From the NCBI GenBank assembly GCA_023264815.1, contig JAHFUZ010000005.1, positions 65,842-129,841 on the forward strand: DNA of 64,000 nt. The letters are read 5' to 3'. The position numbers and the translations under genes were made by a program. Shown here in pieces: positions 21,145-37,728 of this stretch. This DNA comes from Arthrobacter sp. Its GTDB lineage: Bacteria; Actinomycetota; Actinomycetes; Actinomycetales; Micrococcaceae. Position 1 is the stretch's first letter, and every line of letters begins with the position of its first letter. The notes beneath the pieces were generated by a model, which searched no databases, was not told the DNA's origin, and worked only from the letters and a program-made list of their open reading frames with translations.

Positions 21145-21348
21145 CGGGAGCCCTTCTGGAAGAAGATTTTCGCGCCTGGGCGCTTGGAGCAGTTCACAGT
21201 GCTCTTGCGAACAGTGACCCTATTCTAAATGTCCACAGCAGGCATCGCGGCACGAGTTCACAGCAGACGTTCAGCTGCTATACAGCATTCCTTTGCCTGC
21301 GCGGCCCCGCCTGTTAACAATCCGGCCTGAGCCTTATCACGACCGCGC

Positions 21349-22044: not shown

Positions 22045-22055
22045 GTTCACCTGTC
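22034..22055 (+). promoter_or_regulatory. PHO-box-like pair of 11-nt direct repeat units upstream of the first PstS-fold gene
   Basis: tttcaccataa|gttcacctgtc: TTTCACC and GTTCACC start exactly 11 nt apart, 85-100 nt upstream of the ATGs at 22140/22155. Confidence 0.4.
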
Positions 22056-22139
22056 CGCAGCTTGTTCTTAGCCAGGCAATTCAAGCTGCCGGACCGCACC
22101 GCCGCAGACTCAAAGCCGCACATCCACACGCAATCCAAG

Positions 22140-23273
22140 ATGGGGAATCCTGACATGAAATTGAAGTCCTTCCGGGCTGTTGGCGCAGTCTGCGCCACGG
22201 CCCTGGCACTTGGCCTGATCAGCACTTCCAGTGCCTCCGCAGAACCCTCGACGCCGGACCGGGCCTTCGCCGCGGTGGGCTCCGACACTATCCAGGACGT
22301 CTGGAACGGGCTGACGAACAACGGTCCGGTCAAGTCCGTAGCCTCCTTCGACGCCTTCGGCGCACCCGCAACGATCGTGACCAAAGCCGGGGCAACACCG
22401 ATCACCCGCCCCAATGGCTCCGGTGCCGGCGTCAAGGCCCTCAGCGCCAGCCTGAATCCGCTCAACCACGTCTACAAGGACTCGGCCAACAACTCCTTCA
22501 CGCTGAAGAAGAACGACGTGGACATTGCCCGGTCCTCATCCTCGCCGAGCGTTGCCGGTACGGACCTGACGTTCCTGCCGTTCGCGCGCGATGCCGTGAC
22601 CGTGGCGGTCAAGGACTCCGCGAACAACCCGCTCAGCCTCACCACCCAGCAGATCGCCAACATCTTCAGCTGCACGGCCGGCGATGGCGTCACGATTGAC
22701 GGCGGCACCGGAAAGCCGATGCTCGGCGGCATGGTGTTCACGCCCAAGCTCCCCCAGGCTGCCTCCGGCACGCGCGGGTTCTTCCTCAAGGCGATCGGCG
22801 TCACGCCGAACACCACCTGCATCCCCAACGCCGAGCAGGCCTACCCGGAAAACAGCGGCGCAGCACTGGTCAACAACGGCGACATCATCCCCTTCTCAGC
22901 CGCACAGTGGATCGCACAGAAGAACGGCGCCATGACGGACACCACCGCCGCCGGCCAGCTGCTTGCGGACATCGATGGGCTGAAGGCCGTTGCTCCCGGT
23001 ACCGTGGCTCCGGCGCTGGCTCCCGGCGACCTGTACGGCGACGCCGCCGTGGCGCCCGCCAGCGGAAAGGGTATTTTCGCCCGCGACACCTACAACGTGG
23101 TGGCCAGCACCACCCAGACCAGCAAGCTGATTTACAGCCTCCTGCTGGGCAATTCCGTGTCCACCAACCTGAAGACAATTGGCAGCAAGGTAGTCATCAA
23201 CAAATTCGGTTTCAAGACGCTCTCCTACGTGGGCGACTGGACCTATGGCAAAAAGTCCGGGTACACCAACTAA
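22140..23273 (+). CDS. Secreted PstS/PBP_like_2-fold substrate-binding-type protein with no membrane anchor
   Basis: Signal peptide MKLKSFRAVGAVCATALALGLISTSSASA with no lipobox. PBP-type motifs are AVGSDTIQ, RPNGSGAGVKAL, DIARSSS, LSLTTQQIANIF and ASGTRGFF. The start is ATG 22140 or 22155. Confidence 0.8.
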   Translation: MGNPDMKLKSFRAVGAVCATALALGLISTSSASAEPSTPDRAFAAVGSDTIQDVWNGLTNNGPVKSVASFDAFGAPATIVTKAGATPITRPNGSGAGVKALSASLNPLNHVYKDSANNSFTLKKNDVDIARSSSSPSVAGTDLTFLPFARDAVTVAVKDSANNPLSLTTQQIANIFSCTAGDGVTIDGGTGKPMLGGMVFTPKLPQAASGTRGFFLKAIGVTPNTTCIPNAEQAYPENSGAALVNNGDIIPFSAAQWIAQKNGAMTDTTAAGQLLADIDGLKAVAPGTVAPALAPGDLYGDAAVAPASGKGIFARDTYNVVASTTQTSKLIYSLLLGNSVSTNLKTIGSKVVINKFGFKTLSYVGDWTYGKKSGYTN

Positions 23274-23373
23274 GCGCTTATTGAAAACCTGCATTATGCG
23301 GGGAATTTACTCCGCTCTTTGCCCTACCTGAATTTCAGCTCTAAATACAACAACCTGAGAAAGAGAAACGATT

Positions 23374-24588
23374 ATGGCTGACGCCACATCAAGGAAATCC
23401 CGCCTGGGCCTGAACGCGACGGCGGCAGTGGCCGGCACCGCGCTCCTGCTGGGCGGTGGAATTACGGTGGCAAATGCCACCCTGCCCGCCGGTTCCGCGG
23501 GAACCGTTACGTCAAACCCCACCTCCGGTGACTGGAGCACCGTGAGCCTGTCGCTGATGAAGCTGCACAGCGACATGGTCTGCCCCACCACCGGGAACAT
23601 CCTGGAAGGCGCACTGATTTTCATGTCCGAGCCCGGCCAGGAAATCCAGCCTGCACCGAGCAACACCGTTGAAGCCCAGACTCTCTACCCGTGGACGCAG
23701 GACCCGCAGTACGCGATGTCCCTGAACCCCAACGGCACCATCGCCGATGACAACACCCTGGAGTCCGGCTTCGTCAACATGAGCAAGGCACCGATCGCGG
23801 ACATGTCAACGGTTGTGGAAGCAAACCACACCTACAGCATCGGTTACGTCTGCACCGTGTCCAACGACAACGTCACCACGGCAAAAATCAACCCGGTTGC
23901 CGGCAAGACCGTAGCCTCCTGGGCCACGCTGACCACCGACGCCGCGAAGAAATGGACCATCAGCCAGCCTGTGGTCACCACGCCGAGCGCCACCCCCACG
24001 GCCACCGAAACCGTTGACCCGTCACCGACTGCCACGCCGACGGCCACCGAAACCGTTGACCCGTCGCCGAGCGCCTCTGAGTCACCCTCGGCAACCGCCA
24101 CCGCCACCACCCCGGCTCCGCTGGCCACCACCGGCAGGGGTGCAACCGCGGGCGGTTCGGACATCGTTCCGCTGACCACCGGAACCGCTCTGGTGGAAGG
24201 CACCAAGCACTCAGTGGCAGCTCCTGCCGGCACCTTTGTGGCCGGCGAAACGGTCACCGGCGCGATCCACTCCGATCCGGTTGCCCTGGTTGAAACGGCC
24301 GTGGCCAACGCCGACGGTTCGGTCACGTACAGCTTCACTGTTCCGGCCGGCCTGCCCGCCGGAACGCACACACTCGTCCTGACCGGCGCCGCCGGCGCCA
24401 CGTTCGAGGTCACCGGCCTGACTGTCGCCGGTACGTCCAACGCGCCGTTCCTCGCCGACACCAACTGGCTCGCCACCACCGGCCCGGCGGGCACTGCCGG
24501 AATGACCGCCATGGTACTGGGCGGCCTGACGCTCATGGCAGCGGGCGCCGGAGTATACCTGCGCCGCCGTAAGGGCAGCAGGGCCTGA
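23374..24588 (+). CDS. Secreted surface protein with a C-terminal LAxTG cell-wall sorting signal
   Basis: N-terminal signal peptide (...GGGITVANA). The C-terminus WLATTGPAGTAGMTAMVLGGLTLMAAGAGVYLRRRKGSRA reads as motif, then hydrophobic helix, then basic tail. There is a Pro/Thr linker with a tandem repeat and an Ig-like C-terminal domain. Confidence 0.85.
   Translation: MADATSRKSRLGLNATAAVAGTALLLGGGITVANATLPAGSAGTVTSNPTSGDWSTVSLSLMKLHSDMVCPTTGNILEGALIFMSEPGQEIQPAPSNTVEAQTLYPWTQDPQYAMSLNPNGTIADDNTLESGFVNMSKAPIADMSTVVEANHTYSIGYVCTVSNDNVTTAKINPVAGKTVASWATLTTDAAKKWTISQPVVTTPSATPTATETVDPSPTATPTATETVDPSPSASESPSATATATTPAPLATTGRGATAGGSDIVPLTTGTALVEGTKHSVAAPAGTFVAGETVTGAIHSDPVALVETAVANADGSVTYSFTVPAGLPAGTHTLVLTGAAGATFEVTGLTVAGTSNAPFLADTNWLATTGPAGTAGMTAMVLGGLTLMAAGAGVYLRRRKGSRA
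23998..24070 (+). repeat. 42-bp tandem repeat (2 copies) encoding the TATETVDPSP linker
   Basis: acggccaccgaaaccgttgacccgtc[a/g]ccga occurs at 23998-24028 and 24040-24070. Confidence 0.9.
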
Positions 24589-24597
24589 TTTACCAGC

Positions 24598-24638
24598 AAT
24601 TGCCCGGATCCCGCTGGGGTCCGGGCAATTCCTTTTCC
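24598..24638 (+). terminator. Rho-independent terminator after the LAxTG protein gene
   Basis: aattgcccggatccc (24598-24612) pairs with ggggtccgggcaatt (24616-24630) with one G-U pair. It is followed by ccttttcc. Confidence 0.8.
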
Positions 24639-24824
24639 AGCGCCGATTCCTTTTGTTCACCTCCGGGAAATGTTTCCTTTATCAGGGCACAGCAGGTCAC
24701 GGAAGAAGCCACGAAATAATAGTCCAGCAGCTTCCGCTGATGCCGGCGGAACATTCCCATGCCACGCGCATCAGCCAGTCCCCAGGCTCAGCTGCCATCC
24801 CGGAATTACGGAAAGAAAGAATTC

Positions 24825-27596
24825 ATGCTGCCTCCATGGAATACCCGACGGGGCCACGCCAGGACCCGCCTCCGGCCCGCAATACGGTGGGCTTCCCCCG
24901 TAGCCGCTGCCGCTGCCGCCGGCGCCCTCCTCCTGGTTTCCCTGCCGCCCGTCACGGCGGACACCATCGTCCCGGGCACCGATTGGGGCCCCCGGGGTTC
25001 CATGGTTAGCGATACCGCCACCACCGTGAGCTGGGGCAACACCGGCAATGCCGCGGAGAGCACTGTGCCCCGCGGCGGGCAGCAGAAGCTGCCGCACACG
25101 GCTGCCAAGACGTTCAACGACGTCGACCAGCGGCTTCGCGACGCAGCGAACCGCGCGTTCGGGGCTGACAACGGCCGTGGCGGACTCTCACTGCAGGTTT
25201 CCCAAACCAGGAACCTGCAGAACCAGTCAGTGACGGTCAGCTTCTCCGGCGCGGATCCGGCAGCAAGCAGCAATGGCGCCAGCACCTCCTACCTCCAGGT
25301 GTTCCAGTGCTGGGGCAAACCAGGCGCGGACAACAAACCCGACCCCGCCGCAACCGAACCCGATCCGGCGACGTGCCAGTTCGGTGCCACGGGGCTCGAC
25401 GGCGACATCTCCAACACTGCACACCAGCGTTCGCTGCTCAACGATCCGCTGGTCCGCGGCGGAGACTGGGAAGCAGCCGATCCGGCTTCTCCCTCCATGA
25501 ACCTCCCGGCTCCGTTCAAAACAGTCACCGGGGAAGAAACGCGCATCACCGACGGCTTCAACCTCAGCGAATACCGCAACCCTTTCTTCAGCCGCACCAG
25601 CACCAACGAGTTCTCCCGGTTCATGGCCTCGGAACAGGGTGCCGGCTCGCGGACGTTCGAAGTGCAAAGCGGCATGGAGGCCTCCGGGCTGGGCTGCGGC
25701 TTCCGTCCGGACGCACCCAGCGTGGCCAAATGCTGGCTGGTGGCTGTGCCCCGCACCGCCGCCATGGACGCCATCCTGCCCGCCGGTCCGCTCTCGCCCA
25801 GCCTGTGGGCGATGCGCCTGCAGGTTCCCCTCCACTTCCAGGACGTCGCGGCGGTCTGCCCCACCGACCGGTCAGCCACCCTCAGCGTCGGCTCCGAAGC
25901 CCTCGGCGCCGCGATGAAGTCCTGGATCCCCGCAGTCTGCGACTCCAAGAAGTTCACGCTGGGGTTCTCTCCCCTGGCTGACCTGCAGGCCCGTAGCCAA
26001 CTGCAGCAGCCGGACACGCTGGCGTTCATGACCCGTCCCGCTGCCAGCGGCAACAATCTCTACGTGCCCACCGCACTGGCCGGCGTGGTGGTTGCCATGA
26101 CCATCGACAACGCCTGCACGGCGGCTTTCACCCCCTACACCCTGGCCGACTGCGGCTACAAGGACAAGGCCGAGTGGGAAGCAGACAAGGCCCGCAGTGC
26201 CGGCCTTGTCCGCGACCTGAAGCTGAACGCCCGGCTCCTGGCCAAGCTGCTGACCCAAAGCTACGTGCAGCACACGGCCCCGGCCTCCGCCGTCGACGCC
26301 CCCTTCACCAAGCCCGGCACCACCGCCTACGGCCGGCCCATGACGTACTCCATCCAGAACGACCCCGAGTTCACGTCCCTGAACCCGAAAGGCCTGGGTT
26401 CCTCTGGCAACCTCAACCCGCCCGTGGTCGAAGGCCTCCGTTCGGACGCCGCAGCCGCCGTCTGGGACTGGCTCCTGAACGACCAGGCCGCACGGGCTTT
26501 CCTGAACGGCTGCCCGGATCCGGCAGGAATGACCATCAACCCGTTCTACTCGACCCGCACATACGCCGAATGCCAGGACCAGGCCGCCGAACTGGACCGC
26601 CAGGCCGGGAAGAAGATCGCCGACACCAAGACGCCGGCGGGTTTCAGCTACGCCCGCCAGTCCTACCCCTCTGAGGGCGCCTCCTACCCCCAGATCTACT
26701 GGGCACAGAACGAGGCCATCCTCAATGCCCAGGGCGCCGTGGAGCAGCCGGCGCTGACCGTTGGCGACCAGTACTCCCGGGTCCACGACATGGCAACGGC
26801 AGCCCAGTACACGGTGCGGGCGCAGCCGGCCTCCACCACGTCCTGGTGCGCGGACTGCAGCCCACCGGCCTACAAGTCGGTGTCCCGGCAGGGGTACGGC
26901 AGCCGCAGCGTCATCTCCATCACCGACGCCGCCTCGGCAGCGAAGTTCCAGCTCCCCACCGCCCAGCTGTGCAACACCGAGGGCTCACAGTGCATCGGTG
27001 CCACCACCGCCAGCCTGCAGGCGGCCGCCGGCCAGTTCGAACCCACCGGAGTCCCCGGCGTGCAGCGGGCGTCCGCCAGCCCCGACTACCGCACGTCTTA
27101 CCCGCTGACGCTGCCCATCTACGGCGCAGTGGACCTGGCCACGGTCAGCCAGCCGCAGGCAGCCACGTTCGCGCAACTGTTCTCCTACATCAGCACCGAT
27201 GGCCAGAAGTCCGGGTTCCGGAGCGGAATGCTGCCGCCCGGCTATGCACCGCTCACCCCCGCCCTGCTACTGGGCGCCGCAGCCGGCATCCAGGCGCTGC
27301 AGAGCGTGCAGGGCCCGCAGCAGCTGGCGGCCACCGCGCAGCTGCTGCCGATGGACTCAACGCCGGCCGCGGTGCAGCCCCTGGCCGCCGTCCCGGCGTC
27401 GCCGGTGGAGCCCCCGGCGGCTGCGGCAGTGCCTGCTGCGGCCCCGGCAGCTGTTCCTGCCGCTGCTGACGCCATACCTGGCCGGACCGCGGCCACCGGG
27501 AGTGCCTGGCCGCAGTTCACCATGGCGATCGGACTGCTGGCAGCCCTCGCCACCGCCGCCGCCGCGCCCCTGCTGGCCCGGGGACGGCGCCGATGA
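24825..27596 (+). CDS. Large secreted protein (923 aa): unknown N-terminal half, degenerate PstS-like C-terminal half, Ala/Pro linker and a sorting-signal-like tail
   Basis: Signal-like N-terminus ...AAAAAGALLLVSLPPVTADT. PstS-like landmarks are LKLNARLLAKLLTQSY, EGLRSDAAAAVWDWLL, YPLTLPIYGAVD and LPPGYAPLTPAL. The tail is ...IPGRTAATGSAWPQFTMAIGLLAALATAAAAPLLARGRRR. The stop overlaps the pstC start (ATGA). An alternative upstream ATG lies at 24759. Confidence 0.8.
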   Translation: MLPPWNTRRGHARTRLRPAIRWASPVAAAAAAGALLLVSLPPVTADTIVPGTDWGPRGSMVSDTATTVSWGNTGNAAESTVPRGGQQKLPHTAAKTFNDVDQRLRDAANRAFGADNGRGGLSLQVSQTRNLQNQSVTVSFSGADPAASSNGASTSYLQVFQCWGKPGADNKPDPAATEPDPATCQFGATGLDGDISNTAHQRSLLNDPLVRGGDWEAADPASPSMNLPAPFKTVTGEETRITDGFNLSEYRNPFFSRTSTNEFSRFMASEQGAGSRTFEVQSGMEASGLGCGFRPDAPSVAKCWLVAVPRTAAMDAILPAGPLSPSLWAMRLQVPLHFQDVAAVCPTDRSATLSVGSEALGAAMKSWIPAVCDSKKFTLGFSPLADLQARSQLQQPDTLAFMTRPAASGNNLYVPTALAGVVVAMTIDNACTAAFTPYTLADCGYKDKAEWEADKARSAGLVRDLKLNARLLAKLLTQSYVQHTAPASAVDAPFTKPGTTAYGRPMTYSIQNDPEFTSLNPKGLGSSGNLNPPVVEGLRSDAAAAVWDWLLNDQAARAFLNGCPDPAGMTINPFYSTRTYAECQDQAAELDRQAGKKIADTKTPAGFSYARQSYPSEGASYPQIYWAQNEAILNAQGAVEQPALTVGDQYSRVHDMATAAQYTVRAQPASTTSWCADCSPPAYKSVSRQGYGSRSVISITDAASAAKFQLPTAQLCNTEGSQCIGATTASLQAAAGQFEPTGVPGVQRASASPDYRTSYPLTLPIYGAVDLATVSQPQAATFAQLFSYISTDGQKSGFRSGMLPPGYAPLTPALLLGAAAGIQALQSVQGPQQLAATAQLLPMDSTPAAVQPLAAVPASPVEPPAAAAVPAAAPAAVPAAADAIPGRTAATGSAWPQFTMAIGLLAALATAAAAPLLARGRRR

Positions 27597-28612
27597 GCAC
27601 CGTACTGCCCGGGACCCGGGCTGACGAAGCCCAGGACACTCCGCGCGTGCTGCGCCAGGTGCTGGAGCAGCAGGACTACCTCTTCCGGGCCGTGACCCGG
27701 GTGGGCGGCGGGATGGTCCTGGCCATCATGGCCCTGGTGGGCCTGTTCCTCGCCGGCAACGGCGTCGGCGCGATTGGTGAAGTAGGCCTGGGCAGGTTCC
27801 TCACCACGCAGAACTGGGCACCGGAGACCAACGACTTCGGGATCGCCGCAGTCCTTTGGGGCACCCTGCAGATTGCCACGGTGGCGTTGGCCGTGGCCAT
27901 GCCGCTGGCCCTGGGCACGGCCCTGTTCATCACCGAAGTGGCCACGGGCTGGCTGCAGAAGGCACTGACCAGCCTCATCGACCTCCTCGCCGCCGTACCG
28001 TCCGTGGTCTTCGGCCTGTGGGGGGCGTACATGCTGCAGCCCAACGTGGTGGACTTCAGCAAATGGCTGTCCACCTGGTTCGGCTGGATACCGTTCCTGC
28101 AGGTTGACGGCGTGGACCCGGCCAGCCCGCTGCGCGACACCGTGCCGTTCACGGCCTCGGCGTTCATCGCCGGCCTGGTGGTGGCCATGATGATCGTGCC
28201 GATCCAGACCTCCATCATGACCGAGTCGTTCCGCCGCGCCCCGATCGGCGAGCGCGAGGGCGCCTACGCCCTGGGCGCCACCCGGCTGGGCATGATCCGC
28301 ACCGTGGTGTTGCCCTTCGGCCGCGGCGGCATCATCGGCGGCACGATGCTGGGGCTGGGCAGGGCCTTGGGCGAGACCATCGCGATCTACCTGATCATCA
28401 GCCCGGTCTATGCGATCAATTTCCATGTCCTGGAAAAAGGCGCCAACTCAATCGCCGCCATGATCGCCCTGAAATACTCCGAATCCAACGAATCCGCGAT
28501 GGGAGCCCTGATGGCCGCCGGTCTGACGCTGTTCGTGATCACCATGCTGGTCAATATCACCGCCTCAGCCATCATGGCCAGGTCGCGGTCCGGCGCAGAA
28601 AGTGAGGGCTGA
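27593..28612 (+). CDS. pstC: Phosphate-type ABC transporter permease PstC
   Basis: 339-aa ORF. ...LIDLLAAVPSVVFGLWGAYML... and ...EGAYALGATRLGMIRTVVLPFGRGGIIGG... are typical of PstC. Confidence 0.9.
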   Translation: MSTVLPGTRADEAQDTPRVLRQVLEQQDYLFRAVTRVGGGMVLAIMALVGLFLAGNGVGAIGEVGLGRFLTTQNWAPETNDFGIAAVLWGTLQIATVALAVAMPLALGTALFITEVATGWLQKALTSLIDLLAAVPSVVFGLWGAYMLQPNVVDFSKWLSTWFGWIPFLQVDGVDPASPLRDTVPFTASAFIAGLVVAMMIVPIQTSIMTESFRRAPIGEREGAYALGATRLGMIRTVVLPFGRGGIIGGTMLGLGRALGETIAIYLIISPVYAINFHVLEKGANSIAAMIALKYSESNESAMGALMAAGLTLFVITMLVNITASAIMARSRSGAESEG

Positions 28613-28615
28613 GCC

Positions 28616-29893
28616 ATGACCACCGTGGATGAGGCACCCGCCACCACCGGGCTGCACCAAGTCACCCCGGGACAGCACCAGGCCCGGCCGACTACCCACC
28701 TTCCGCTGCTGTCCAAACCCCCGGCCGGGGATGAGGTCCGGGTGCGCGCGGGCGCCGGACGCGCCCATGTCCTCTCGCTGACCGGTTCAGCCCTCGGCGG
28801 CCTGGGCATGGGCCTGCTGCTGACGGTGGGCCTCGGCCTGATCCCTGTCGGCTGGCTGTTCATCGTGTCCTACCTGTGGTTCCTGCTGCTCTACACCGCG
28901 CTGGTGCACCTGCGGCAACCCGGACCGGCGGTACGCAACGGCCTGGTGACGGTGCTGCTCAGCTCCGCGGGCGCCGCCGTCGCCGGCACGCTGGGACTGG
29001 TGGTGATGTTCACCTTCGCCCGCGGGCAGGAAGCCCTGTTCCACCTGAACTTCTTCACCACAGACATGACCGGCGCCGGGCCCCTGTCCGGCCTGGACCA
29101 GGGCGGCGTGCTGCACGCACTGGTGGGAACGCTGGAACAGATCGGCATCGCCCTGGCCATCACCATTCCGCTGGGACTGACGACGGCGGTGTTCCTCAAC
29201 GAGGTGGGCGGCCGCTTCGCCCGGATGGTACGCACCGTGGTGGAGGCAATGACGGCGCTGCCTTCGGTGGTGGCTGGACTGTTCATCTATGCCGCGGTGG
29301 TGATGTCCATCACGCACCAGACCAACGGCCTGGCCGCGTCCCTGGCCATCACCGTCCTGATGCTGCCCATCATGATCCGCTCATCCGACGTCGTGCTCCG
29401 CCTGGTGCCAGGCAACCTGCGCGAGGCGGGCCTGGCCCTGGGCGCGGGACAGTGGCGCGTGGTGTGGCACATTGTGCTGCCGACGGTCCGCTCAGGCCTG
29501 ACCACCGGAATCATCCTGGCCACGGCCCATGGCATCGGCGAAACCGCGCCCGTACTGCTGACCTCCGGCTTCACCGGCGTTATGAACGTCAACCCGTTTT
29601 CCGGTCCGCAGACGCCGCTGCCCCTGGCGGCGCTGGACTACGTCCGCTCCCCCGTGCCGGGAATGGTGGCGCGTGGGTTTGCCACCGCGGCCTTCCTGCT
29701 CTTCGTGGTGCTGGTGCTGTTCATCATCGCCCGGATCATCGGCGGACAGGACGCCGGCAAACAGACAGAAGCCCAGGCACGCCGCGCGGCAGCCAGGTCC
29801 CGGCGCGATCTGCCGCGCATTGAACGCAACCATGCCCGGCTGTTGGCGGGCATGGCCACGGCCCCTACCGACAATCTGCAGGAGAAACCATGA
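28616..29893 (+). CDS. pstA: Phosphate-type ABC transporter permease PstA with a long N-terminal extension
   Basis: 425-aa ORF. ...FLNEVGGRFARMVRTVVEAMTALPSVVAGLFIY... and ...REAGLALGAGQWRVVWHIVLPTVRSGLTTG... are PstA-like. The first 60 or so residues are non-membrane and Pro/Thr/Gly-rich. Confidence 0.88.
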   Translation: MTTVDEAPATTGLHQVTPGQHQARPTTHLPLLSKPPAGDEVRVRAGAGRAHVLSLTGSALGGLGMGLLLTVGLGLIPVGWLFIVSYLWFLLLYTALVHLRQPGPAVRNGLVTVLLSSAGAAVAGTLGLVVMFTFARGQEALFHLNFFTTDMTGAGPLSGLDQGGVLHALVGTLEQIGIALAITIPLGLTTAVFLNEVGGRFARMVRTVVEAMTALPSVVAGLFIYAAVVMSITHQTNGLAASLAITVLMLPIMIRSSDVVLRLVPGNLREAGLALGAGQWRVVWHIVLPTVRSGLTTGIILATAHGIGETAPVLLTSGFTGVMNVNPFSGPQTPLPLAALDYVRSPVPGMVARGFATAAFLLFVVLVLFIIARIIGGQDAGKQTEAQARRAAARSRRDLPRIERNHARLLAGMATAPTDNLQEKP

Positions 29894-31584
29894 TCCGCCC
29901 CCTTTCCACGCGACGGACCTTCCCGGCGGTCCTGGGAATCCTGCTGTCCTTGGGCATGGTCTTCGCCGGCCTCGCCCCCGCCCAGGCCGCCAACTACCTG
30001 CGCATTGGCGGTTCCGGTTCCTCTTGGGCCGGCAACGCGCTCCAGGACTGGGTGGCGCGGGTGGGAGCCCAGGGCGTGACTGTGGACTACGAAAACAAGG
30101 GCTCCTCCACCGGGCGCAAGGAATTCGCAGACCAGATGAAGCAGTTCGCCGTCTCGGAAATCCCCTACACCGGTGACACCGCCGACCCGCGGGACAACAG
30201 CATGCCCGGCTTCTCCTACGGCATGTTGCCCGTGGTGGCCGGCGGCACCGCCTTTATGTACAACCTCAAGGCGGGCAGCTCGCGCCTGACCAGCCTGAAG
30301 CTCTCGCAGCCGGCCATCGCCAAGATCTTCACCGGCCAAGTCACCCGCTGGAACGATCCCCTCATCACGGCCGACAACCCCGGCGTGGCCCTGCCGGACG
30401 CCACCATCAACGTGGTGGTCCGCTCGGACGGTTCCGGCGCGACGGCCCAGTTCACGCTCTGGCTGCTGCGCCAGTTCCCGGCCGACTACGCCAAGCTGTG
30501 CGCCGTCACGGGCTGCGACCCGCAGCATGCCACATCCTTCTTCCCCACCCAGGGGCTGAAGAACTTCGTGGCACAGAACGGGTCGCAGGGCGTCACCACG
30601 TACTCCGCCAATAACCAGTTCACCATCAACTATGACGAATACTCCTACGCCCAGGGCATCGGCTTCCCGGTGGCGCAGGTCAAGAACGCTGCCGGCTTCT
30701 ACACACTGCCCACCGAACACGCTGTGGCGGTGGCCCTGACCCAGGCAGGCATCAACCAGGACAAGGGGTCGGCCAACTACCTGTCCCAGGACCTTTCCAA
30801 GGTCTACGGCTACAAGGACCCGCGCACCTATCCGATGTCCGCCTACTCATACATGATTGTCCCGACGCAGGCCACGAATGCGCTGAACCCCGCCCAGGGC
30901 GCCACGCTGGGATTCTTCGCCAACTTTGCGTTGTGTGAAGGCCAGCGTCCCATGGGCCAGCTCGGCTACTCGCCGCTGCCCATGAACCTGGTCCTGGCCG
31001 GGATGGAGCAGATCCGCAAGATCCCCGGCGTTGACCAGGAAACCGTCCAGAAGATGGACCAGACCCGGGACAGCGTGGCCGGCGGGTCAACGCCCGCCTG
31101 CAACAACCCCACCTTCAAGCCCGGCGACTCGCCCTCCGCCAACCAGCTGGTCCGCACGGCACCGTTCGACAAGTCCTGCGACGCCGCCTGCCAGGCGCCG
31201 TGGCGCGGTGCCGATGCTGCCGTCAACCAGGGCCCCGGCGGTCCCGCGGCGGGTACGGGGCCGGCGGCCGCCGCCGCCACCGACGTCCCGGCCGAGGCCG
31301 GCCCGGCAGCCACCACGGACCCCGCCGCCGCCGCGGCGGCAGAGGCCTGCGACCCGGATAGCGGAAGCTGCGCCGCCGTAGCAGCCGGAGCATCGAGCGG
31401 TACCGGCGCCGGCCAGCAGCTGACCCCGGTCACCACCACCCTGGCCTCCAGCCGCGGCTGGGGCCAGCCACAGAACCTGCTGCTGATCATCGGCGGGCTG
31501 GTTGGCCTGCTGGTGCTGGTGCCGCCGCTGGCCGCCGGCGTGTTCTCCCGGCGGGCGGGCAGCAAGAGCGGCACCAAGGCATGA
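29890..31584 (+). CDS. pstS: PstS-like substrate-binding protein with a ~200-aa Cys- and Ala/Pro-rich C-terminal extension and a C-terminal membrane/sorting-like tail
   Basis: Signal peptide ...GLAPAQAANY with no lipobox Cys. PstS motifs are GGSGSSWAGNALQDW, NKGSSTGRKEF, LKLSQPAIAKIFTGQVTRWNDP, VVVRSDGSGATAQFTLWL and GYSPLP. The tail is ...NLLLIIGGLVGLLVLVPPLAAGVFSRRAGSKSGTKA. Confidence 0.85.
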   Translation: MIRPLSTRRTFPAVLGILLSLGMVFAGLAPAQAANYLRIGGSGSSWAGNALQDWVARVGAQGVTVDYENKGSSTGRKEFADQMKQFAVSEIPYTGDTADPRDNSMPGFSYGMLPVVAGGTAFMYNLKAGSSRLTSLKLSQPAIAKIFTGQVTRWNDPLITADNPGVALPDATINVVVRSDGSGATAQFTLWLLRQFPADYAKLCAVTGCDPQHATSFFPTQGLKNFVAQNGSQGVTTYSANNQFTINYDEYSYAQGIGFPVAQVKNAAGFYTLPTEHAVAVALTQAGINQDKGSANYLSQDLSKVYGYKDPRTYPMSAYSYMIVPTQATNALNPAQGATLGFFANFALCEGQRPMGQLGYSPLPMNLVLAGMEQIRKIPGVDQETVQKMDQTRDSVAGGSTPACNNPTFKPGDSPSANQLVRTAPFDKSCDAACQAPWRGADAAVNQGPGGPAAGTGPAAAAATDVPAEAGPAATTDPAAAAAAEACDPDSGSCAAVAAGASSGTGAGQQLTPVTTTLASSRGWGQPQNLLLIIGGLVGLLVLVPPLAAGVFSRRAGSKSGTKA

Positions 31585-32543
31585 CCGCCACCCTGACCGG
31601 CCGCCGCCAGCCCGATCCCCGCTCCGCCTACCGCGGGGTCCTGACCTGGGTGCGCCGGAATGCCCGACGGCGGGCCGCACCCCTGCGCGTTCCGCCGTCA
31701 CCGCGGCGCAAGGCGCTGTCCCTGGGGCTGTCGATGGTTTCGGTACTCCTTTTCGGGCAGCTCATCAACGTGGTGGTCATTTCCCAGGTGCAGCACGCCA
31801 CCACCCAGGCCAGGCTCTTCGATGACCTGCGGACCAGCCTGGCGGAAGGGTCTGCGCCGCTGGGCCAGACCGGCCCTGAAGGTGCCCTCGTGGCGCCCGG
31901 CACGCCTCTGGCACTGCTGTCCATTCCCTCACTGAACCTGACCGAGACGGTGGTGGAGGGGACGGCCTCGCGCGAGCTCATGGACGGCGTGGGGCACCGG
32001 CGGGATACTCCCCTGCCGGGCCAGAGCGGCACCAGTGTGCTGATGGGCCGTGCCGCCGCCTACGGCGGGGTCTTCGGGCAACTGGGCCGCCTCGCACCCG
32101 GCGAACGGTTCACTGTTACCACCGGCCTGGGCGTCGCCGAGTACGAGGTGACCGGCCAGCGCCGGGCCGGTGATCCGGGCCCGGCCGTGCTCAAAGGTGA
32201 CGAAGGGCGGCTGACCCTGACCACCGCCGCGGGCTACGCCTTCCTGCCCGACGGGGTCCTGCGGGTGGATGCAAAGCTGGTTTCCACGCCCCATCCCAAG
32301 GCGGCGCCCGTGCTGTATGCGGCCTCGCTCAAGGACTCCGAACTGCCCTTGGGATCCGATACCTCCGACCTGGTGGGCCTCCTGGTGTGCCTGGAACTGC
32401 TGATTGTTGCCGCCGCCGGCGCGGTGTGGTCCTGGTACCGCTGGGGCCAGCGGGAAACCTGGCTGGTGTTCCTGCCGGCCCTCGGTGCCCTGTCCGTCCT
32501 GACCGGGACCCAGGTCAACCTCCTGCTGCCCAACCTGCTTTAG
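31581..32543 (+). CDS. Sortase-fold membrane protein (class E-like) lacking the catalytic His and Cys; putative pseudo-sortase
   Basis: ...LSIPSLNLTETVVEGTASRELMDGVGHRRDTPLPGQSGTSVLMGRAAAYGGVFGQLGRLAPGERFTV...GRLTLTTAAGYAF...VLRVDAKLV follows the sortase landmarks. These are PGxxGNxxxAGH(R), TLxTC and the Arg strand, but here they read MGR instead of AGH and TLTTA instead of TLTTC. There is an N-terminal TM helix plus two extra C-terminal helices. Confidence 0.75.
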   Translation: MTATLTGRRQPDPRSAYRGVLTWVRRNARRRAAPLRVPPSPRRKALSLGLSMVSVLLFGQLINVVVISQVQHATTQARLFDDLRTSLAEGSAPLGQTGPEGALVAPGTPLALLSIPSLNLTETVVEGTASRELMDGVGHRRDTPLPGQSGTSVLMGRAAAYGGVFGQLGRLAPGERFTVTTGLGVAEYEVTGQRRAGDPGPAVLKGDEGRLTLTTAAGYAFLPDGVLRVDAKLVSTPHPKAAPVLYAASLKDSELPLGSDTSDLVGLLVCLELLIVAAAGAVWSWYRWGQRETWLVFLPALGALSVLTGTQVNLLLPNLL

Positions 32544-32568
32544 TGAAAATGCCACAGAAAGAACTGCC

Positions 32569-33432
<864 letters not shown>

Positions 33433-34164
33433 ATGCGGCGGGCCAGAACAGCCGCCGCACGCGGACGCCGTCGGGTCCTGAACATTGCCGCGGCAGCGCT
33501 GACGACGCTGGGCCTGGCGGTGGTGCTCGTCTACGGTGTCCCGCTGCTCAGCGGGACACCGCCGTTGCTCGCTGTCCCGGGCCAACCCTCCGGGCCCGCG
33601 CCACGCCCGGCTGTAGACGGGACTGAAGGCGCGGCGGCCCCGCTGGTGATCGGGACACCTGAAGAGGCTGAATCCGTGGCAGCCCGCGAGCTGGTGCGGA
33701 CCCCCGCACGGCCCGGCCAGCCGGTGCGGGTGCAGCTGCCGCGGCTGGGTATGGACATCCCGGTGCTGCCCATGGCGCTGCCGGCGGACCGCCGCGTCAA
33801 CCCGCCGTCGAACGGGTTCGCGTACTGGATCAGCGATTTTGGACCGTCCGGCTCCGGTGCGACCAACACCACCTATCTGGCCGCGCACTCGTGGAACCTG
33901 GGATATTCGGCGTTCAACGGCCTGATGGACATTGCGGCCGGCACCGGCAGGGTGCAGCAGGGCGACGCCATCCTGGTCACCACCCCGGAAGGCGTCACCA
34001 GCTACACGGTGACGGGCGCGGGCGGCTACGTGAAGACCACCCTGGGGCAGCAGCAGAACCTGTGGGACGCCGTGCCCGGCCGGCTGGTCCTGCTGACCTG
34101 CTTCCAGCTCAACGATGCCGGCGCCAACGAAAACTACATCGTCTACGCCGAGCGGACCTCCTGA
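33433..34164 (+). CDS. Class F-like sortase (transpeptidase) with the catalytic His and Cys present
   Basis: N-terminal signal-anchor VLNIAAAALTTLGLAVVLVY, then ...VQLPRLGMDIPVLPM..., TTYLAAHSW (His), GDAILVTTPEGVTSYTV and GRLVLLTCFQ (Cys). The start codon directly abuts the pstB stop. Confidence 0.82.
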   Translation: MRRARTAAARGRRRVLNIAAAALTTLGLAVVLVYGVPLLSGTPPLLAVPGQPSGPAPRPAVDGTEGAAAPLVIGTPEEAESVAARELVRTPARPGQPVRVQLPRLGMDIPVLPMALPADRRVNPPSNGFAYWISDFGPSGSGATNTTYLAAHSWNLGYSAFNGLMDIAAGTGRVQQGDAILVTTPEGVTSYTVTGAGGYVKTTLGQQQNLWDAVPGRLVLLTCFQLNDAGANENYIVYAERTS

Positions 34165-34172
34165 ACTGCGGC

Positions 34173-35171
34173 CTAACCGTTCCCGCCCAGCGGGACCACG
34201 TCGCCCTCCCGGTACAGGAGCGCACGGAGTTCGGACTCGGCCGACTGTGTCCGGTGCGCGTCGATGGTCTCCCCCGCGGCAAAATGGTCCAGGAGCCGGG
34301 GGTCAACGTAGCTCTTGCGGGCGATCGACGGCGTGTTCCCCAGCACCGCCGCTGCGTCTTCCATGGCCATGCTGATGGCACGCTTCCGCGCCGCCACCCT
34401 GTCCTGCGGACCGCTGCGCGCCAGGCTGATGGCTGCCGCGACTGTCCCGTGCAGCGTCCGGAAGTCCTTGGCCGTGAAGTCCGAGCCGGTGCGCTCCTTG
34501 ACGTAGGCGTTGATGTCCGCGGCGGTGACAGGATGCCAGGCCCGCCCATTCTTATACGCGAGCAGCCGGGCGTTGCCACCGCGTCGCTTGAGGGTGCGCA
34601 CCAGGGCGGCGAGGTCGGCGTCGTGGATTTCCGATTCCCAGTCCTTGCCGCTCTTGGCCGGGAACCTCAGCTCCAGGCATTCCTTCCTCACATGGACGTG
34701 GGCGCACAGGAGGGTGGCCAGGCCGCGGCTGCCGTTCTGGTTGGTGTAGCGCTCGGACCCCACGCGCAGGGAGCCGCTGTCCAGCATCCTGAACGCCGCC
34801 GCCAGCACGCGTTCGCGGCCGTGGCCGTCGCTGCGCAGGTCAAGGGTGACCAGCCGGCGGGCGGTGGGCAGCGACTCCGCGAGCTGCAGGGCGCGGTCGA
34901 ACTTCAGCCGGTCCTTCCGCTCACGCCACTCGGGATGGTAGATGTACTGCCGCCTTCCCACGGCGTCCAGTCCGGTCGCCTGGATGTGCCCGTTGTCGAA
35001 CGGGGCAATCCACACGTCCGTCCAGGCCGGCGGGATCCCAATGCTTTCCAGCCTGTCCCGCACCGGTCCGGGTGGCAGCGTGGAGCCGTCCAGGTCCCGG
35101 TAGCTGAAGCCGGTTCCGGCGGCGACGCGCCGGTAGCCGCGGCCGTTTGCGTTGCTGCGGCGGAGCCTCAC
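34173..35171 (-). CDS. Bacterial type IB DNA topoisomerase (poxvirus-like TopIB)
   Basis: ...VRLRRSNANGRGYRRV..GFSYRD..., ...RFPAKSGKDWE..., ...FTAKDFRTLHGT... and the catalytic Tyr region ARKSYVDPR. The start is ambiguous: GTG at 35171 is preferred because conserved sequence begins there, and the alternative is ATG at 35246. Confidence 0.85.
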   Translation of the reverse strand: MRLRRSNANGRGYRRVAAGTGFSYRDLDGSTLPPGPVRDRLESIGIPPAWTDVWIAPFDNGHIQATGLDAVGRRQYIYHPEWRERKDRLKFDRALQLAESLPTARRLVTLDLRSDGHGRERVLAAAFRMLDSGSLRVGSERYTNQNGSRGLATLLCAHVHVRKECLELRFPAKSGKDWESEIHDADLAALVRTLKRRGGNARLLAYKNGRAWHPVTAADINAYVKERTGSDFTAKDFRTLHGTVAAAISLARSGPQDRVAARKRAISMAMEDAAAVLGNTPSIARKSYVDPRLLDHFAAGETIDAHRTQSAESELRALLYREGDVVPLGGNG

Positions 35172-35252
35172 GCGGCGTCCTGCCAGGTCATCCGTTCCAT
35201 AAAGGCAAGCGTACTGACTAATTGGCGGAATACGCTCCGGGAGCATGATGTT

Positions 35253-36311
35253 ATGGACAACGTGCCTACTCCCCATGGATCCGCGTCCCCCACCCAAGCC
35301 ACCGCCGGTCAGCCGGCCGGCGGTCCGAAGGTTAGCGGGGCGGGAAGCAAAGCTGCGGGCCCCAAGGTCCCGGCGCTCAAGGCTGTAGACAAAGATACGA
35401 CGGCGGGAATCCTCTTCGGCGTCGGCGCCTACGGGCTGTGGGGGCTGCTGCCGGTGTACTTCGTGGCGCTGATGCCCGCGGGGCCGGTGGAGATCGTGGC
35501 CAACCGCGTGGTGTGGTCGCTGGTGTTCTGTATCCTGCTGATCACCGCCACCCGGTCCTGGCGTGCCTTGGCCAATGCTTTCCGGAACCGTTCTGTTTTC
35601 GGCGCCCTGGCCATCGCCAGCGCCCTGATCGGCGCCAACTGGCTCATCTTCACGTACGGCGTGACCACGGGCCAGGCGGTCGAGGCGTCGCTGGGCTACT
35701 TCATCAACCCGCTCGTCTCGGTCCTCCTCGGTGTGCTGGTCCTGAAGGAGAAGCTGCGCCCGCTCCAGTGGGCCGCCGTCGGAATCGGTTTTGTGGCCGT
35801 GGGCGTGCTCACGGTGAGTTACGGCAAGCTGCCATGGATCGCCCTGGGGCTGGCCTTCAGTTTCGGGTTCTACGGGTTTGTGAAAAAGCGCGTCGGCTCG
35901 AAGGTGGATGCCGTGACGAGCCTGAGCGTGGAGACCATAGTGCTGGCCCCGCTGGCCGCGGGCACCATGGTGTTCCTGGCCCTGGCCGGTTCCGCCACAC
36001 TGGCCAGCCAGGGCCCCGGTCATTTCTGGCTCCTCGTGGCGTCCGGCGTGATCACCGCCGTACCGCTGCTGTTCTTTGGCGCCTCAGCCCGGCGGTTGCC
36101 GCTGACCACCATCGGGCTGCTGCAGTACCTCGCACCGGTGCTGCAGTTCATCATGGCGCTGCTGGTGTTCCACGAAACCATGACGCCGGACCGCTGGATT
36201 GGCTTCGGTGTGGTGTGGCTGGCGCTGCTGGTCCTGACCGTGGATACACTGCGTGCGGCCGGCAGGAAATCGTTGGCCAGGAAGCAGGCACGGCTGAACG
36301 CCGCCCCCTGA
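35253..36311 (+). CDS. rarD: RarD protein (EamA/DMT family transporter)
   Basis: ...GILFGVGAYGLWGLLPVYF... and ...SLGYFINPLVSVLLGVLVLKEKLRPLQW... are typical of RarD. The ~45-aa Ala/Gly/Pro-rich N-terminal extension makes the start uncertain. Only the 3' part of the 806-aa track ORF is used. Confidence 0.85.
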   Translation: MDNVPTPHGSASPTQATAGQPAGGPKVSGAGSKAAGPKVPALKAVDKDTTAGILFGVGAYGLWGLLPVYFVALMPAGPVEIVANRVVWSLVFCILLITATRSWRALANAFRNRSVFGALAIASALIGANWLIFTYGVTTGQAVEASLGYFINPLVSVLLGVLVLKEKLRPLQWAAVGIGFVAVGVLTVSYGKLPWIALGLAFSFGFYGFVKKRVGSKVDAVTSLSVETIVLAPLAAGTMVFLALAGSATLASQGPGHFWLLVASGVITAVPLLFFGASARRLPLTTIGLLQYLAPVLQFIMALLVFHETMTPDRWIGFGVVWLALLVLTVDTLRAAGRKSLARKQARLNAAP

Positions 36312-36336
36312 CACTGCGCTGCAGGGGGCGGCGTTC
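36296..36336. terminator. Bidirectional stem-loop between convergent rarD and gabT
   Basis: Perfect 15-bp stem: gaacgccgccccctg (36296-36310) pairs with cagggggcggcgttc (36322-36336), with an 11-nt loop. It overlaps the rarD stop. Confidence 0.7.
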
Positions 36337-36357
36337 CAGTCCTGCGGGTCAATGCTG

Positions 36358-37728
36358 TTACGCGTTGGCCCTGATGGCGGCGGCCAGGACATCCAGCCCG
36401 TCGTTCAACAGCTCATCCGTCATGACCAGCGGCGGCAGCAGGCGGATCACGTTGCCGTAGGTACCGCAGCTGAGGATGATGACACCCTCCTTGAGGCAGG
36501 CGGCTGCCACGGCCCTGGTCAGTTCCGGGTTGGGTTCCTTGGAGCCGGCCTGGACCAGTTCGAGGGCCAGCATGGCGCCGCGGCCGCGGATGTCGCCGAT
36601 CACGGATTTCCCGGCTCCGGCCAGTTCGGACTGCAGTTCGCGGAGCCGCCCGGTGGCCAGTTCCTCAATGTGGCGGGCGCGGCCGGCGAGGTTGTATTCC
36701 TCCATGGAACCGATCGCAGCCAACGCGGCAGCGCACGCCACCGGGTTGCCGCCGTAGGTGCCGCCGAGGCCGCCCGGATGGACGGCGTCGAGCAGGTCTG
36801 CCCGGCCGGTGATGGCGGAGAGCGGCATGCCGCCGGCGATGCCCTTGGCCATGGTCAGGATGTCCGGAACCACGCCTTCGTGGTTGACGGCAAACCATTC
36901 ACCGGTGCGGCAGAAACCGGACTGGACCTCGTCGGCGATGAACACGATGCCCTTTTCCTTGGCCCAGGCGGCCAGCGCGGGCAGGAAGCCCTCAGCGGGC
37001 ACGATGAACCCGCCCTCACCCTGGATGGGTTCGATGATGATGGCGGCCACCTGGTCCCCGCCGATCTGCTTTTCGATCATGGTGATGGCCCGCTTGGCCG
37101 CCTCCGCACCGGTGATCGAGGGGTTTTCCTCGCGGTACGGGTAGCTCATGGGCATGCGGTAGACCTCGGGCGCGAAGGGGCCAAAGTTGGTCTTGTACGG
37201 CATGGCCTTGGCGGTCAGCGCCATGGTGAGGTTGGTGCGCCCGTGGTAGGCGTGGTCAAAGGCTACGACGGCGTCACGCCCGGTGGCGAGGCGGGCCACC
37301 TTCACAGCGTTCTCCACGGCCTCGGCGCCCGAGTTGAACAGCACGGTGCGCTTCTCGTGGTCCCCCGGGGTCAGCCGGTTCAGCTGTTCGGCGAGGGCCA
37401 CGTAGCTTTCGTACGGGGTGACCATAAAACAGGTGTGGGTGAAGTGCTCCACGGCTTCCTTCACGGCCCCGACGACGGCGGGATCGGAGGCGCCGACGCT
37501 GGTCACCGCGATGCCCGAGCCGAGGTCGATGAAGGAGTTGCCGTCCACGTCGTGGATGATCCCGCCGTCGGCATCTGCCACATAGACCGGGACGCTGGAG
37601 GCGACGCCGGCGGCAACCACGGCCTTGCGGCGTTCAGTCAGGGCGATCGATTTGGGGCCCGGGAAGTCGGCCTGGACGCGGCGCTTCTGTTCCAGGCGGA
37701 AGGTGATGTCATTTGCTGTGGTGGTCAT
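36358..37728 (-). CDS. gabT: 4-aminobutyrate--2-oxoglutarate aminotransferase
   Basis: 456-aa class-III aminotransferase. ...FIADEVQSGFCRTGEWFA... and ...PDILTMAKGIAGGMPLSA... contain the PLP Lys. Confidence 0.93.
   Translation of the reverse strand: MTTTANDITFRLEQKRRVQADFPGPKSIALTERRKAVVAAGVASSVPVYVADADGGIIHDVDGNSFIDLGSGIAVTSVGASDPAVVGAVKEAVEHFTHTCFMVTPYESYVALAEQLNRLTPGDHEKRTVLFNSGAEAVENAVKVARLATGRDAVVAFDHAYHGRTNLTMALTAKAMPYKTNFGPFAPEVYRMPMSYPYREENPSITGAEAAKRAITMIEKQIGGDQVAAIIIEPIQGEGGFIVPAEGFLPALAAWAKEKGIVFIADEVQSGFCRTGEWFAVNHEGVVPDILTMAKGIAGGMPLSAITGRADLLDAVHPGGLGGTYGGNPVACAAALAAIGSMEEYNLAGRARHIEELATGRLRELQSELAGAGKSVIGDIRGRGAMLALELVQAGSKEPNPELTRAVAAACLKEGVIILSCGTYGNVIRLLPPLVMTDELLNDGLDVLAAAIRANA

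Follow-up and report, generated by a model that had tools for sequence, protein, structure and literature searches.

In a 64,000-nucleotide (nt) stretch of an Arthrobacter sp. genome (assembly GCA_023264815.1, contig JAHFUZ010000005.1, positions 65,842 to 129,841 of the forward strand), below called the window and numbered from its first letter, the gene at 31581..32543 (+) encodes a protein of 320 amino acids (aa) that has the fold of a sortase, with both the catalytic His and the catalytic Cys replaced. This protein, named here the pseudo-sortase, represents a phylum-wide actinobacterial family of membrane-embedded sortase-fold pseudoenzymes, and its gene is an almost obligatory member of the operon of a paralogous Pst-type phosphate importer of the ATP-binding cassette (ABC) class. 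We have very little doubt about either statement, i.e., about the dead enzyme and about its membership in the transporter module. The role of the protein is a different matter. The reading we prefer is that the protein is a membrane subunit without catalytic activity in a specialised importer of the Pst type, where it would dock the tails of partner proteins; we find this nearly probable, if not quite so. The first statement is supported by the translation, the Pfam Sortase match, the AlphaFold2 (AF2) model, the Foldseek search, family conservation and the ratio of nonsynonymous to synonymous substitution rates (dN/dS).

Loss of the catalytic residues

Two sets of homologues were aligned. The close set consists of the 120 nearest homologues (48-87% identity to the pseudo-sortase) from Arthrobacter, Pseudarthrobacter, Sinomonas, Psychromicrobium, Nocardioides and Streptomyces; the diverse set consists of 151 sequences, namely, the window protein and 150 cluster representatives. 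In the pseudo-sortase the position of the catalytic His is occupied by Arg157 (CGT, 32049..32051, +), and that of the catalytic Cys of the TLxTC motif by Ala216 (GCC, 32226..32228, +).

The first assignment follows from the pairing of AVAGHRRTYG of SrtE (5go5) with VLMGRAAAYG of the pseudo-sortase. The PGQxG and YGG anchors flank this alignment and fix its register; Arg157 is therefore the counterpart of the catalytic His, and LMGRAAAYGG is entirely free of His. As for the second, GRLTLTTA of the pseudo-sortase pairs with LTLVTC (8t28) and VTLITC (2xwg), both of class C sortases, and with GRLVLLTC of the intact sortase encoded in the same operon, so that the catalytic Cys corresponds to Ala216. 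Two nucleotide substitutions separate its codon, GCC, from either codon for Cys. The initial annotation of the window had proposed that both residues are replaced; with solved sortases and the operon's intact sortase as references, this is confirmed.

The third residue of the triad is a more delicate question, as the same annotation considered the strand with the catalytic Arg to be retained. Strand beta8 includes Arg228-Val-Asp230 (32262..32270, +), where Arg228 takes the candidate position of the catalytic Arg. This correspondence is unproven because no alignment reaches beta8: the profile-to-PDB alignment and the hhalign alignment with the operon's intact sortase both end at the TLxT(A/C) strand, before beta8, and in the alignment that comes closest, the Arg of class C falls three positions ahead of Arg228. 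The column is occupied by Arg in 114 of the 120 close sequences; in the diverse set it holds Arg (56), Tyr (56), Phe (9), Trp (4) and other residues, i.e., the Arg is lineage-specific, and about half of the diverse members have Tyr or Phe instead. Thus, the claim of retention is reduced to a candidate.

The two other columns are far more uniform. The His column contains Arg in all 120 close sequences, and Arg (149) or Lys (2) in the 151 diverse ones. The Cys column contains Ala (118) or Ser (2) in the close set, and Ala (111), Ser (19), Thr (8), Gly (5), Val (5) or Leu (2) in the diverse set. Among the 270 homologues no His was found in the former and no Cys in the latter; seven more loci reached by other routes are of the dead type too. 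Judging from the three columns, no residue of the triad is conserved family-wide. Sortase transpeptidation requires a Cys thiolate and a His. With neither of these present, and with the putative Arg lost in about half of the members, transpeptidation by the thioester-based sortase route is therefore impossible. The proposal of a catalytically dead pseudo-sortase is strongly supported by the His and Cys columns and by the dN/dS values given below, and it extends from the single protein to the whole family.

One may ask if the protein is an enzyme of some non-canonical kind, acting, for example, through Thr/Ser215, His139, Asp230 or Glu126 on the tails of its partners or on another substrate. 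These residues are indeed well conserved in the diverse set (T/S215 in 149/151, D230 in 143/151, H139 in 136/151 and E126 in 127/151). However, most of them are also kept in true sortases, where they do not serve as nucleophiles; at the Cys position any of A, S, T, G, V and L may be found, which leaves no conserved nucleophile there; and the dependence of sortase transpeptidation on the Cys thiolate and the His stands against it as well. We consider such an activity highly improbable.

Sortase fold and class

The assignment to sortases was checked at the levels of profile and structure, as the initial annotation had suggested. The Pfam Sortase profile PF04203 matches aa 113-215 with 52 bits, well above the cutoff of 26.6 (E = 7.7e-14), and TIGR01076 gives 40.5 at a cutoff of 39.35. 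The AF2 model, with an alignment of 33 family sequences as input, has a mean predicted local distance difference test score (pLDDT) of 80.1 and a predicted TM-score (pTM) of 0.73, and in it residues ~109-233 form a beta-rich domain. Foldseek listed 50 best PDB matches for this model, every one of them a sortase (classes A, C, D, E and F; probability 1.00; target TM-score of at most 0.80); eight of the ten best are class C sortases. Together with the alignments, these data delimit the sortase-fold beta-barrel domain as aa 104-236 (31890..32288, +). By fold and profile the protein belongs to the sortase superfamily, without the catalytic features that define it.

The label "class E sortase", also given initially, is not upheld. 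In the NCBIfam ranking class E comes first, followed by SrtD and class D, all of them far under the subfamily cutoffs of 140-165: the scores are 52.2 bits for class E (NF033747, cutoff 160), 48.3 for class D (NF033746, cutoff 165), 27.6 for class C (NF033745, cutoff 160) and 20.8 for class F (NF033748, cutoff 166). In addition, the Tyr of the GHY motif in S. avermitilis SrtE (5go5) aligns with Arg140 of the pseudo-sortase. This residue lies in the family signature G-x-G-H-R-R-D-T of the beta3/beta4 loop (31986..32009, +), which was recognised by the alignment to 5go5 and by conservation; position 140 itself is R in 89 of the 151 diverse sequences, L in 28, Q in 10, and other residues in the rest. 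In class E the Tyr of the beta3/beta4 loop, Tyr229 of SrtE1, reads the Ala of LAXTG (PMC5148588). We presume that the Tyr of the SrtE GHY motif is the equivalent of SrtE1 Tyr229. With the low NF033747 score and Arg140 at this position, membership in class E was rejected.

Conservation and selection

In an exhaustive profile search, 496 clusters (at 50% identity) reached E<=1e-30, and the top 150 of them match over the full length, the C-terminal helices included. Relatives are encoded in at least 427 species genomes of the genome collection, spread over Micrococcales, Streptomyces, Micromonospora, Streptosporangiales, Jiangella, Propionibacteriales and Acidimicrobiia; the closest named homologues are from Pseudarthrobacter and Arthrobacter. 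A domain scan of ten unusually long members revealed no fused domain besides the sortase domain. No homologue from S. coelicolor is among the matches listed, and the absence from this heavily studied species may be the reason that the family has escaped notice.

The well conserved parts are the beta3/beta4 loop GxGHRRDTxxPGQxG, Gly156-Arg157, YGG, Asp230-Ala231 (A231 in 148/151), the Trp residues of the C-terminal hairpin and the terminal LLPNLL; Arg141 is nearly invariant. The groove-lining beta3/beta4 loop and the C-terminal membrane motifs are thus among the most conserved parts of the family.

In ten pairs of closely related loci, dN/dS is 0.06-0.34 for the pseudo-sortase, 0.04-0.21 for PstS' and 0-0.13 for PstB' (the last two are described below). 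The values for the pseudo-sortase indicate purifying selection. Homology to an enzyme family, loss of the essential residues and maintained selection are what defines a pseudoenzyme, and all three are found here.

It could be objected that we are dealing with an artefact, i.e., with an ordinary class E sortase that was inactivated by mutation in this strain, is decaying as a pseudogene or was misread in sequencing. Nothing was found in favour of this, and it is refuted by the substitutions being fixed in 270 homologues across many genera and by a dN/dS well under 1; the GCC codon, two changes from a Cys codon, and the conserved full-length architecture also speak against it. We regard it as practically impossible. 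The orthologue alignment, which had been named initially as a check of whether the loss is specific to the strain, gives the clear answer that it is not.

Protein layout and membrane topology

The open reading frame (ORF) at 31581-32543 (+) translates into the 320-aa protein quoted in the initial annotation, with all the motifs quoted there. In order, it comprises an Arg-rich N-terminus, a first transmembrane segment (TM1), the sortase-fold domain, a two-helix C-terminal membrane hairpin and a terminal LLPNLL. TM1, a signal-anchor, covers aa 45-70 (31713..31790, +) as judged from the sequence and from the AF2 helix; the model has one long N-terminal helix. Ahead of TM1 there are 13 Arg/Lys residues vs 1 Asp/Glu, and the N-terminus is predicted to be cytoplasmic on this ground, by the positive-inside rule.

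Between TM1 and the sortase domain lies a juxtamembrane linker, L-A-x-[G/A]-T-A-P, here LAEGSAP (aa 87-93, 31839..31859, +), recognised by its conservation in the 151 sequences: L87 is present in 135/151, A88 in 125/151 and P93 in 140/151. The preceding Arg84 is almost invariant, which gives the longer motif R-x2-L-A-x-[G/A]-T-A-P. We note that this segment reads as a permuted LAXTG.

The C-terminal membrane hairpin (32367..32540, +) is defined by the AF2 model and by conservation. It consists of TM2 with W-x-W-x-R-W, a basic loop YRWGQRET, TM3 and LLPNLL. The two additional C-terminal helices noticed at the outset are present in the model (H264-288 and H290-319) and are kept across the family, with W283, W288, W294, P299, P317 and N318 conserved. 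The topology suggested by these features has the N-terminus inside, the sortase domain outside, the basic TM2-TM3 loop inside and LLPNLL at the outer face.

The operon

The ATG of the pseudo-sortase gene overlaps the stop codon of pstS' as ATGA (31581-31584), as had been observed, and the start of pstB' follows 25 nt past the pseudo-sortase stop. All the genes of the row are on the + strand. The first is a secreted PstS-like protein without a membrane anchor (22062..23273; weak match to TIGR02136). It is followed by a surface protein with an LATTG sorting signal, a hydrophobic helix and RRRK (23374..24588; family scans and sequence) and by a 923-aa protein with a PstS-type fold (24825..27596; AF2 and Foldseek). 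Then come the permease PstC' (27593..28612; TIGR02138, 244 bits vs cutoff 196), the permease PstA' with N- and C-terminal extensions (28616..29893; TIGR00974, 190 bits, just below the cutoff of 193) and PstS' of 564 aa (29890..31584; TIGR00975, 187 bits; PF12849, 121.6 bits). Directly 3' of the pseudo-sortase gene is the ATPase PstB' (32569..33432; TIGR00972, 339.7 bits vs cutoff 343.2), and then an intact sortase in which AAHS and LVLLTC are present (33433..34164; Pfam Sortase, 46.7 bits; NF033748, 30.7 vs cutoff 166). When 21000-36500 was scanned with consensus motifs, no convincing promoter or terminator turned up within the row, and the family scans of the module genes gave no PhoU match.

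Synteny was studied by a tblastn search of the operon proteins against 83 related loci. These are the best-scoring relatives, mostly from Streptomyces; distant members were covered by a handful of look-ups. Enough DNA was available in 77 loci, and in 76 of them a PstB-like gene lies on the same strand at most 1.5 kb downstream of the pseudo-sortase gene. Of the 69 loci with enough upstream DNA, 62 contain PstC', 64 PstA', 65 PstS', 66 the ~900-aa protein and 67 the PstS-like protein. The gene order varies by lineage, the pseudo-sortase remaining beside the ATPase gene. The look-ups gave a similar picture: a member of the Tyr variant (P0126) has the complete module, and in two distant members pstB' is not the next gene, yet the start of the pseudo-sortase gene overlaps the stop of the gene for a long PstS' or for the ~900-aa protein. 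For the reverse search, three distant proteins homologous to the ~900-aa protein (25-31% identity) served as starting points; the module was found in 3/3, each with a dead-type sortase-domain gene of 307-326 aa. The expression "inserted between pstS' and pstB", used in the initial annotation, should accordingly be replaced: the gene is a fixed member of the operon.

The opposite holds for the intact sortase and the LATTG protein, homologues of which occur in 2/83 and 4/83 loci, respectively. The intact sortase best matches class F, weakly, and a PDB sequence search found no solved relative of it. Both genes look like lineage-specific passengers, confined to a few Micrococcaceae. This bears on the proposal that the pseudo-sortase is a decoy or a regulator of the class F-like sortase or of a housekeeping sortase, perhaps shielding the receptors from being released from the membrane by cleavage. 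The presence of an intact sortase and an LATTG surface protein in the same operon of the window is in its favour, and it is general knowledge that pseudoenzymes often regulate active paralogues. Nevertheless, with the intact sortase in only 2/83 loci and the LATTG protein in 4/83, regulation of the class F sortase, an option of the initial annotation, is disfavoured as a general role, the link to the transporter being near-universal; besides, the partner tails contain no LPXTG or LAXTG to shield. We think it very unlikely.

Partner proteins

The module holds three PstS-fold proteins. PstS' begins with a signal peptide that is cleavable and has no lipobox; a phosphate-binding domain follows, and the C-terminus forms a membrane anchor. 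Its phosphate-site motif RSDGSGAT aligns to those of solved PstS proteins. A Cys-containing, Ala/Gly/Pro-rich linker of ~190 aa leads to the hydrophobic helix and the basic end. Within this linker (31100-31400) there are Cys pairs, for example CDPD(S/T)GxC, that are conserved across genera; their sequence suggests a small disulfide-bonded element within a low-complexity linker. The tail itself (31420..31581, +), defined by tail comparison, is composed of the strand LTPVTTT, G-W-x3-Q, the hydrophobic helix with a late Pro and the basic end. The helix and the basic end are found in 69/70 PstS' tails, and L[P/A]xTG upstream of the helix in 0/70. In 65/70 tails the same pattern occurs in register: an [L/V]-A-x-P-[V/T/F]-x-[V/L/T] strand, G-W-x3-Q and the late Pro of the helix.

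The 923-aa protein (945 aa if started at the upstream ATG 24759) begins with a signal peptide and a beta-rich domain; a PstS-type fold with insertions follows, then a linker rich in Pro and Ala, a C-terminal anchor helix and RGRRR. Its AF2 model has a pLDDT of 81.4 and a pTM of 0.81, and the top Foldseek matches are all PstS or DING phosphate-binding proteins (probability 1.00, target TM-score about 0.7). The beta-rich domain at aa ~50-350 (24825-25900) is well modelled, has several invariant Cys residues, could be assigned to no family or fold and lies outside the PstS-matching part.

The third protein, the PstS-like one at 22062-23273, has a C-terminal anchor helix in 0/71 loci; its homologues in Streptomyces and Nocardioides carry Big_3_5 domains. 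By their sequences, PstS' and the ~900-aa protein are type I membrane proteins with wall-spanning linkers and with tails that resemble sorting signals and have no cleavable LPXTG or LAXTG. Both co-occur with the pseudo-sortase in the two search directions, and both have conserved, non-cleavable tails.

Proposed role

With the topology suggested above, the groove of the pseudo-sortase would sit at the place in which true sortases engage the juxtamembrane motif of a substrate, and its conserved Trp-rich helix pair where the anchor helix of the substrate would lie. The outward-facing sortase domain and the Trp-rich hairpin could recognise the juxtamembrane strand and the anchor helix of the uncleavable tails. 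The tethered phosphate receptors would be held beside the PstC'A'B' translocon, which may serve the assembly of the importer or the hand-over of phosphate. In evolutionary terms, a dedicated sortase/substrate pair would have lost cleavage on both sides and kept the binding. For this tail-docking mechanism as such our confidence is somewhat below that for the subunit role. Broader still is the proposal that the pseudo-sortases are the first natural sortase pseudoenzyme family and a fossil sortase/substrate pair, in which the enzyme has lost His and Cys and the signals their scissile motif while recognition persists, and that the sortase fold is now a sixth stoichiometric component of a new class of Pst-type importer, holding wall-spanning, C-terminally anchored PstS-fold receptors at the translocon; taken as a whole, it is rather doubtful.

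A related possibility is that the protein is a transient assembly factor, similar to a chaperone or an insertase, and no stable subunit of the transporter: it would capture PstS' and the ~900-aa protein by their C-terminal tails while they are being secreted, secure their retention in the membrane and their folding, and then release them. The evidence from synteny and tails is the same as for a docking subunit, and some members located apart from pstB' still overlap the stop of the PstS' or ~900-aa gene. However, transient and stable binding are not separated by sequence data, and the position just before the ATPase gene (76/77) is better suited to a stoichiometric subunit. We therefore see the assembly factor as quite unlikely.

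Several observations weigh against the docking subunit. The strand motif before the partner helices is loosely conserved, except for one Pro and the GW, and the ~900-aa tails of Streptomyces are unlike those of Micrococcaceae. A few members have no PstB-like gene next to them (loci L071, L085/L086 and L088); the neighbours among L085/L086 and L071 are a weak DUF6318 protein and a different ABC ATPase (39% identity), and on one short contig a relative of the pseudo-sortase has a different neighbour. The family may have secondary gene contexts. The LAxG[ST]AP linker of the pseudo-sortase might itself occupy the groove; by analogy, it could fill it like the AQA tripeptide of crystallised SrtE1 or like the class C lid. 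For control of the operon by phosphate there are no more than hints (see below). Finally, the Arg-rich former active site (Arg140, Arg141, Arg157 and Arg228) could equally bind an anionic non-protein ligand.

The last point deserves consideration as an explanation in its own right. The former active site would then bind an anion or a wall ligand (lipid II, a teichoic acid-like polymer or phosphate) instead of protein tails, in a pocket formed by Arg140, Arg141, Arg157 and, in this lineage, Arg228, with Asp142 and Asp230; in this way the transporter would be positioned in the wall, or phosphate would be scavenged or sensed. Arg157 is invariant in effect (149 Arg and 2 Lys of 151), Arg141, Asp230 and Ala231 are nearly so, and phosphate-binding folds dominate the operon. 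Lipid II is the normal second substrate of sortases, bound as the nucleophile, which also favours this explanation. Against it, Arg140 and Arg228 vary in the wider family, the pair Arg157-Asp230 may be a mere structural salt bridge filling the dead site, and the conserved sorting-signal-like tails of the two anchored partners are left unexplained. We consider a ligand of this kind unlikely, and keep to the docking subunit as the preferred role.

Regulatory signals and neighbouring genes

A strict search for PHO-boxes upstream of pstC' (two G[GT]TCA[CT] units, 11 or 22 nt apart) was positive in 1/55 loci. A different element is conserved there. In 33 of the 41 loci that bear a -35-like box CATTGA[A/C/T]T, out of 55 tested, GTTC[A/G][C/T] occurs exactly 47 nt upstream of this box, at a background of 0.15 per 110 nt. 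The block lies ~150 nt upstream of pstC' in L001, L009-L038 and other loci of the Streptomyces type, and may be a regulator site for the module.

In the window itself, the divergent intergenic region contains GT[T/C]CACAG-type repeats at 21192, 21231 and 21256 and GTTCAGC at 21269 (span 21192-21279), and GTTCACC (22045-22051) is found 17 nt ahead of the ORF at 22062. The window DNA is high-GC. The repeats resemble the core of the actinobacterial PhoP site (PHO-box), with a spacing other than 11 nt. The motifs are suggestive of phosphate control of the operon; control by PhoP is not established.

Some nearby genes should be mentioned. Between the divergent gene and the operon there is an ORF of 231 aa (21349-22044, +) that has no Pfam match and a third-position GC of 0.73 vs 0.81-0.90 in the operon genes. 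At the other end, the long + strand ORF at 33891-36311 is not one gene: a type IB topoisomerase gene, convergent with the operon, is located on the minus strand at about 34173-35200, and a RarD/EamA transporter gene on the plus strand at about 35403-36311. Six kb from the phosphate-transporter module, at 40800-42404 (-), a protein with CYTH and CHAD domains is encoded; both domains are associated with triphosphate or polyphosphate metabolism.

Significance

In the full-text literature outside subscription-only sources we found neither a natural sortase family without the catalytic Cys nor a sortase gene in a pst operon. All named homologues retrieved are called "sortase", "class E sortase" or "sortase domain-containing protein" in the databases. 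Sortases are counted and classified by homology, which is why annotation is affected: if these proteins perform no transpeptidation, the sortase inventories and the predicted surface proteomes are wrong for many actinobacteria, including many genomes of Streptomyces, Arthrobacter, Nocardioides, Micromonospora and Cryobacterium. If the proposed role is true, the bacterial cell surface is to be added to the short list of places where a protease or transpeptidase fold has been reused as a non-catalytic binder. The data also point to an undescribed design of ABC importer for thick-walled bacteria, in which several receptors would be carried on C-terminal helices with wall-spanning linkers, and an accessory membrane protein would act as the organiser. 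This is testable in culturable soil actinobacteria.

Comparison with known systems

The class E sortases (S. coelicolor SrtE1, 5CUW; S. avermitilis SrtE, 5GO5) are the best match by NCBIfam and among solved structures. The beta-barrel fold, the N-terminal anchor with a cytoplasmic tail, the actinobacterial range and the EGT, GxGH, PGQxG and TLxT motifs are shared. The differences are that the pseudo-sortase has Arg157, Ala216 and Arg140 in place of the His, the Cys and the Tyr of GHY; that it adds the C-terminal two-helix hairpin with LLPNLL; and that it belongs to a transporter operon, whereas class E sortases are housekeeping enzymes.

In class C sortases the catalytic domain lies between membrane segments, one on either side, and the sortase domain of the pseudo-sortase is likewise flanked by membrane segments. 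In contrast to class C, it has no His-Cys-Arg triad, no lid and no pilin neighbours, and its class C score is the 27.6 given above against a cutoff of 160. Dedicated sortase/substrate pairs, such as the class GN "marine" sortase (TIGR03784) with its target, or SrtB-IsdC, resemble our case in having adjacent proteins with C-termini composed of a motif, a helix and a basic tail; here, however, the enzyme is without Cys and His and the tails are without LPXTG or LAXTG. The likely outcome for the partners is retention in the membrane and not linkage to the wall.

iRhoms and Derlins are catalytically dead rhomboid-fold proteins that bind membrane clients. Here the analogy is functional only: the fold is dead and conserved, and client binding is what we propose for the pseudo-sortase; fold and organisms are unrelated, and no homology is implied.

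With the canonical PstSCAB the module shares homologues of PstC, PstA, PstB and PstS, and PstS' keeps the phosphate-site motifs. It differs in that PstS', PstA' and PstB' are just under the equivalog cutoffs; in that PstS' is anchored by a C-terminal helix, being neither attached by a lipid nor free in solution; and in that the module includes two extra PstS-fold proteins and the three-helix pseudo-sortase.

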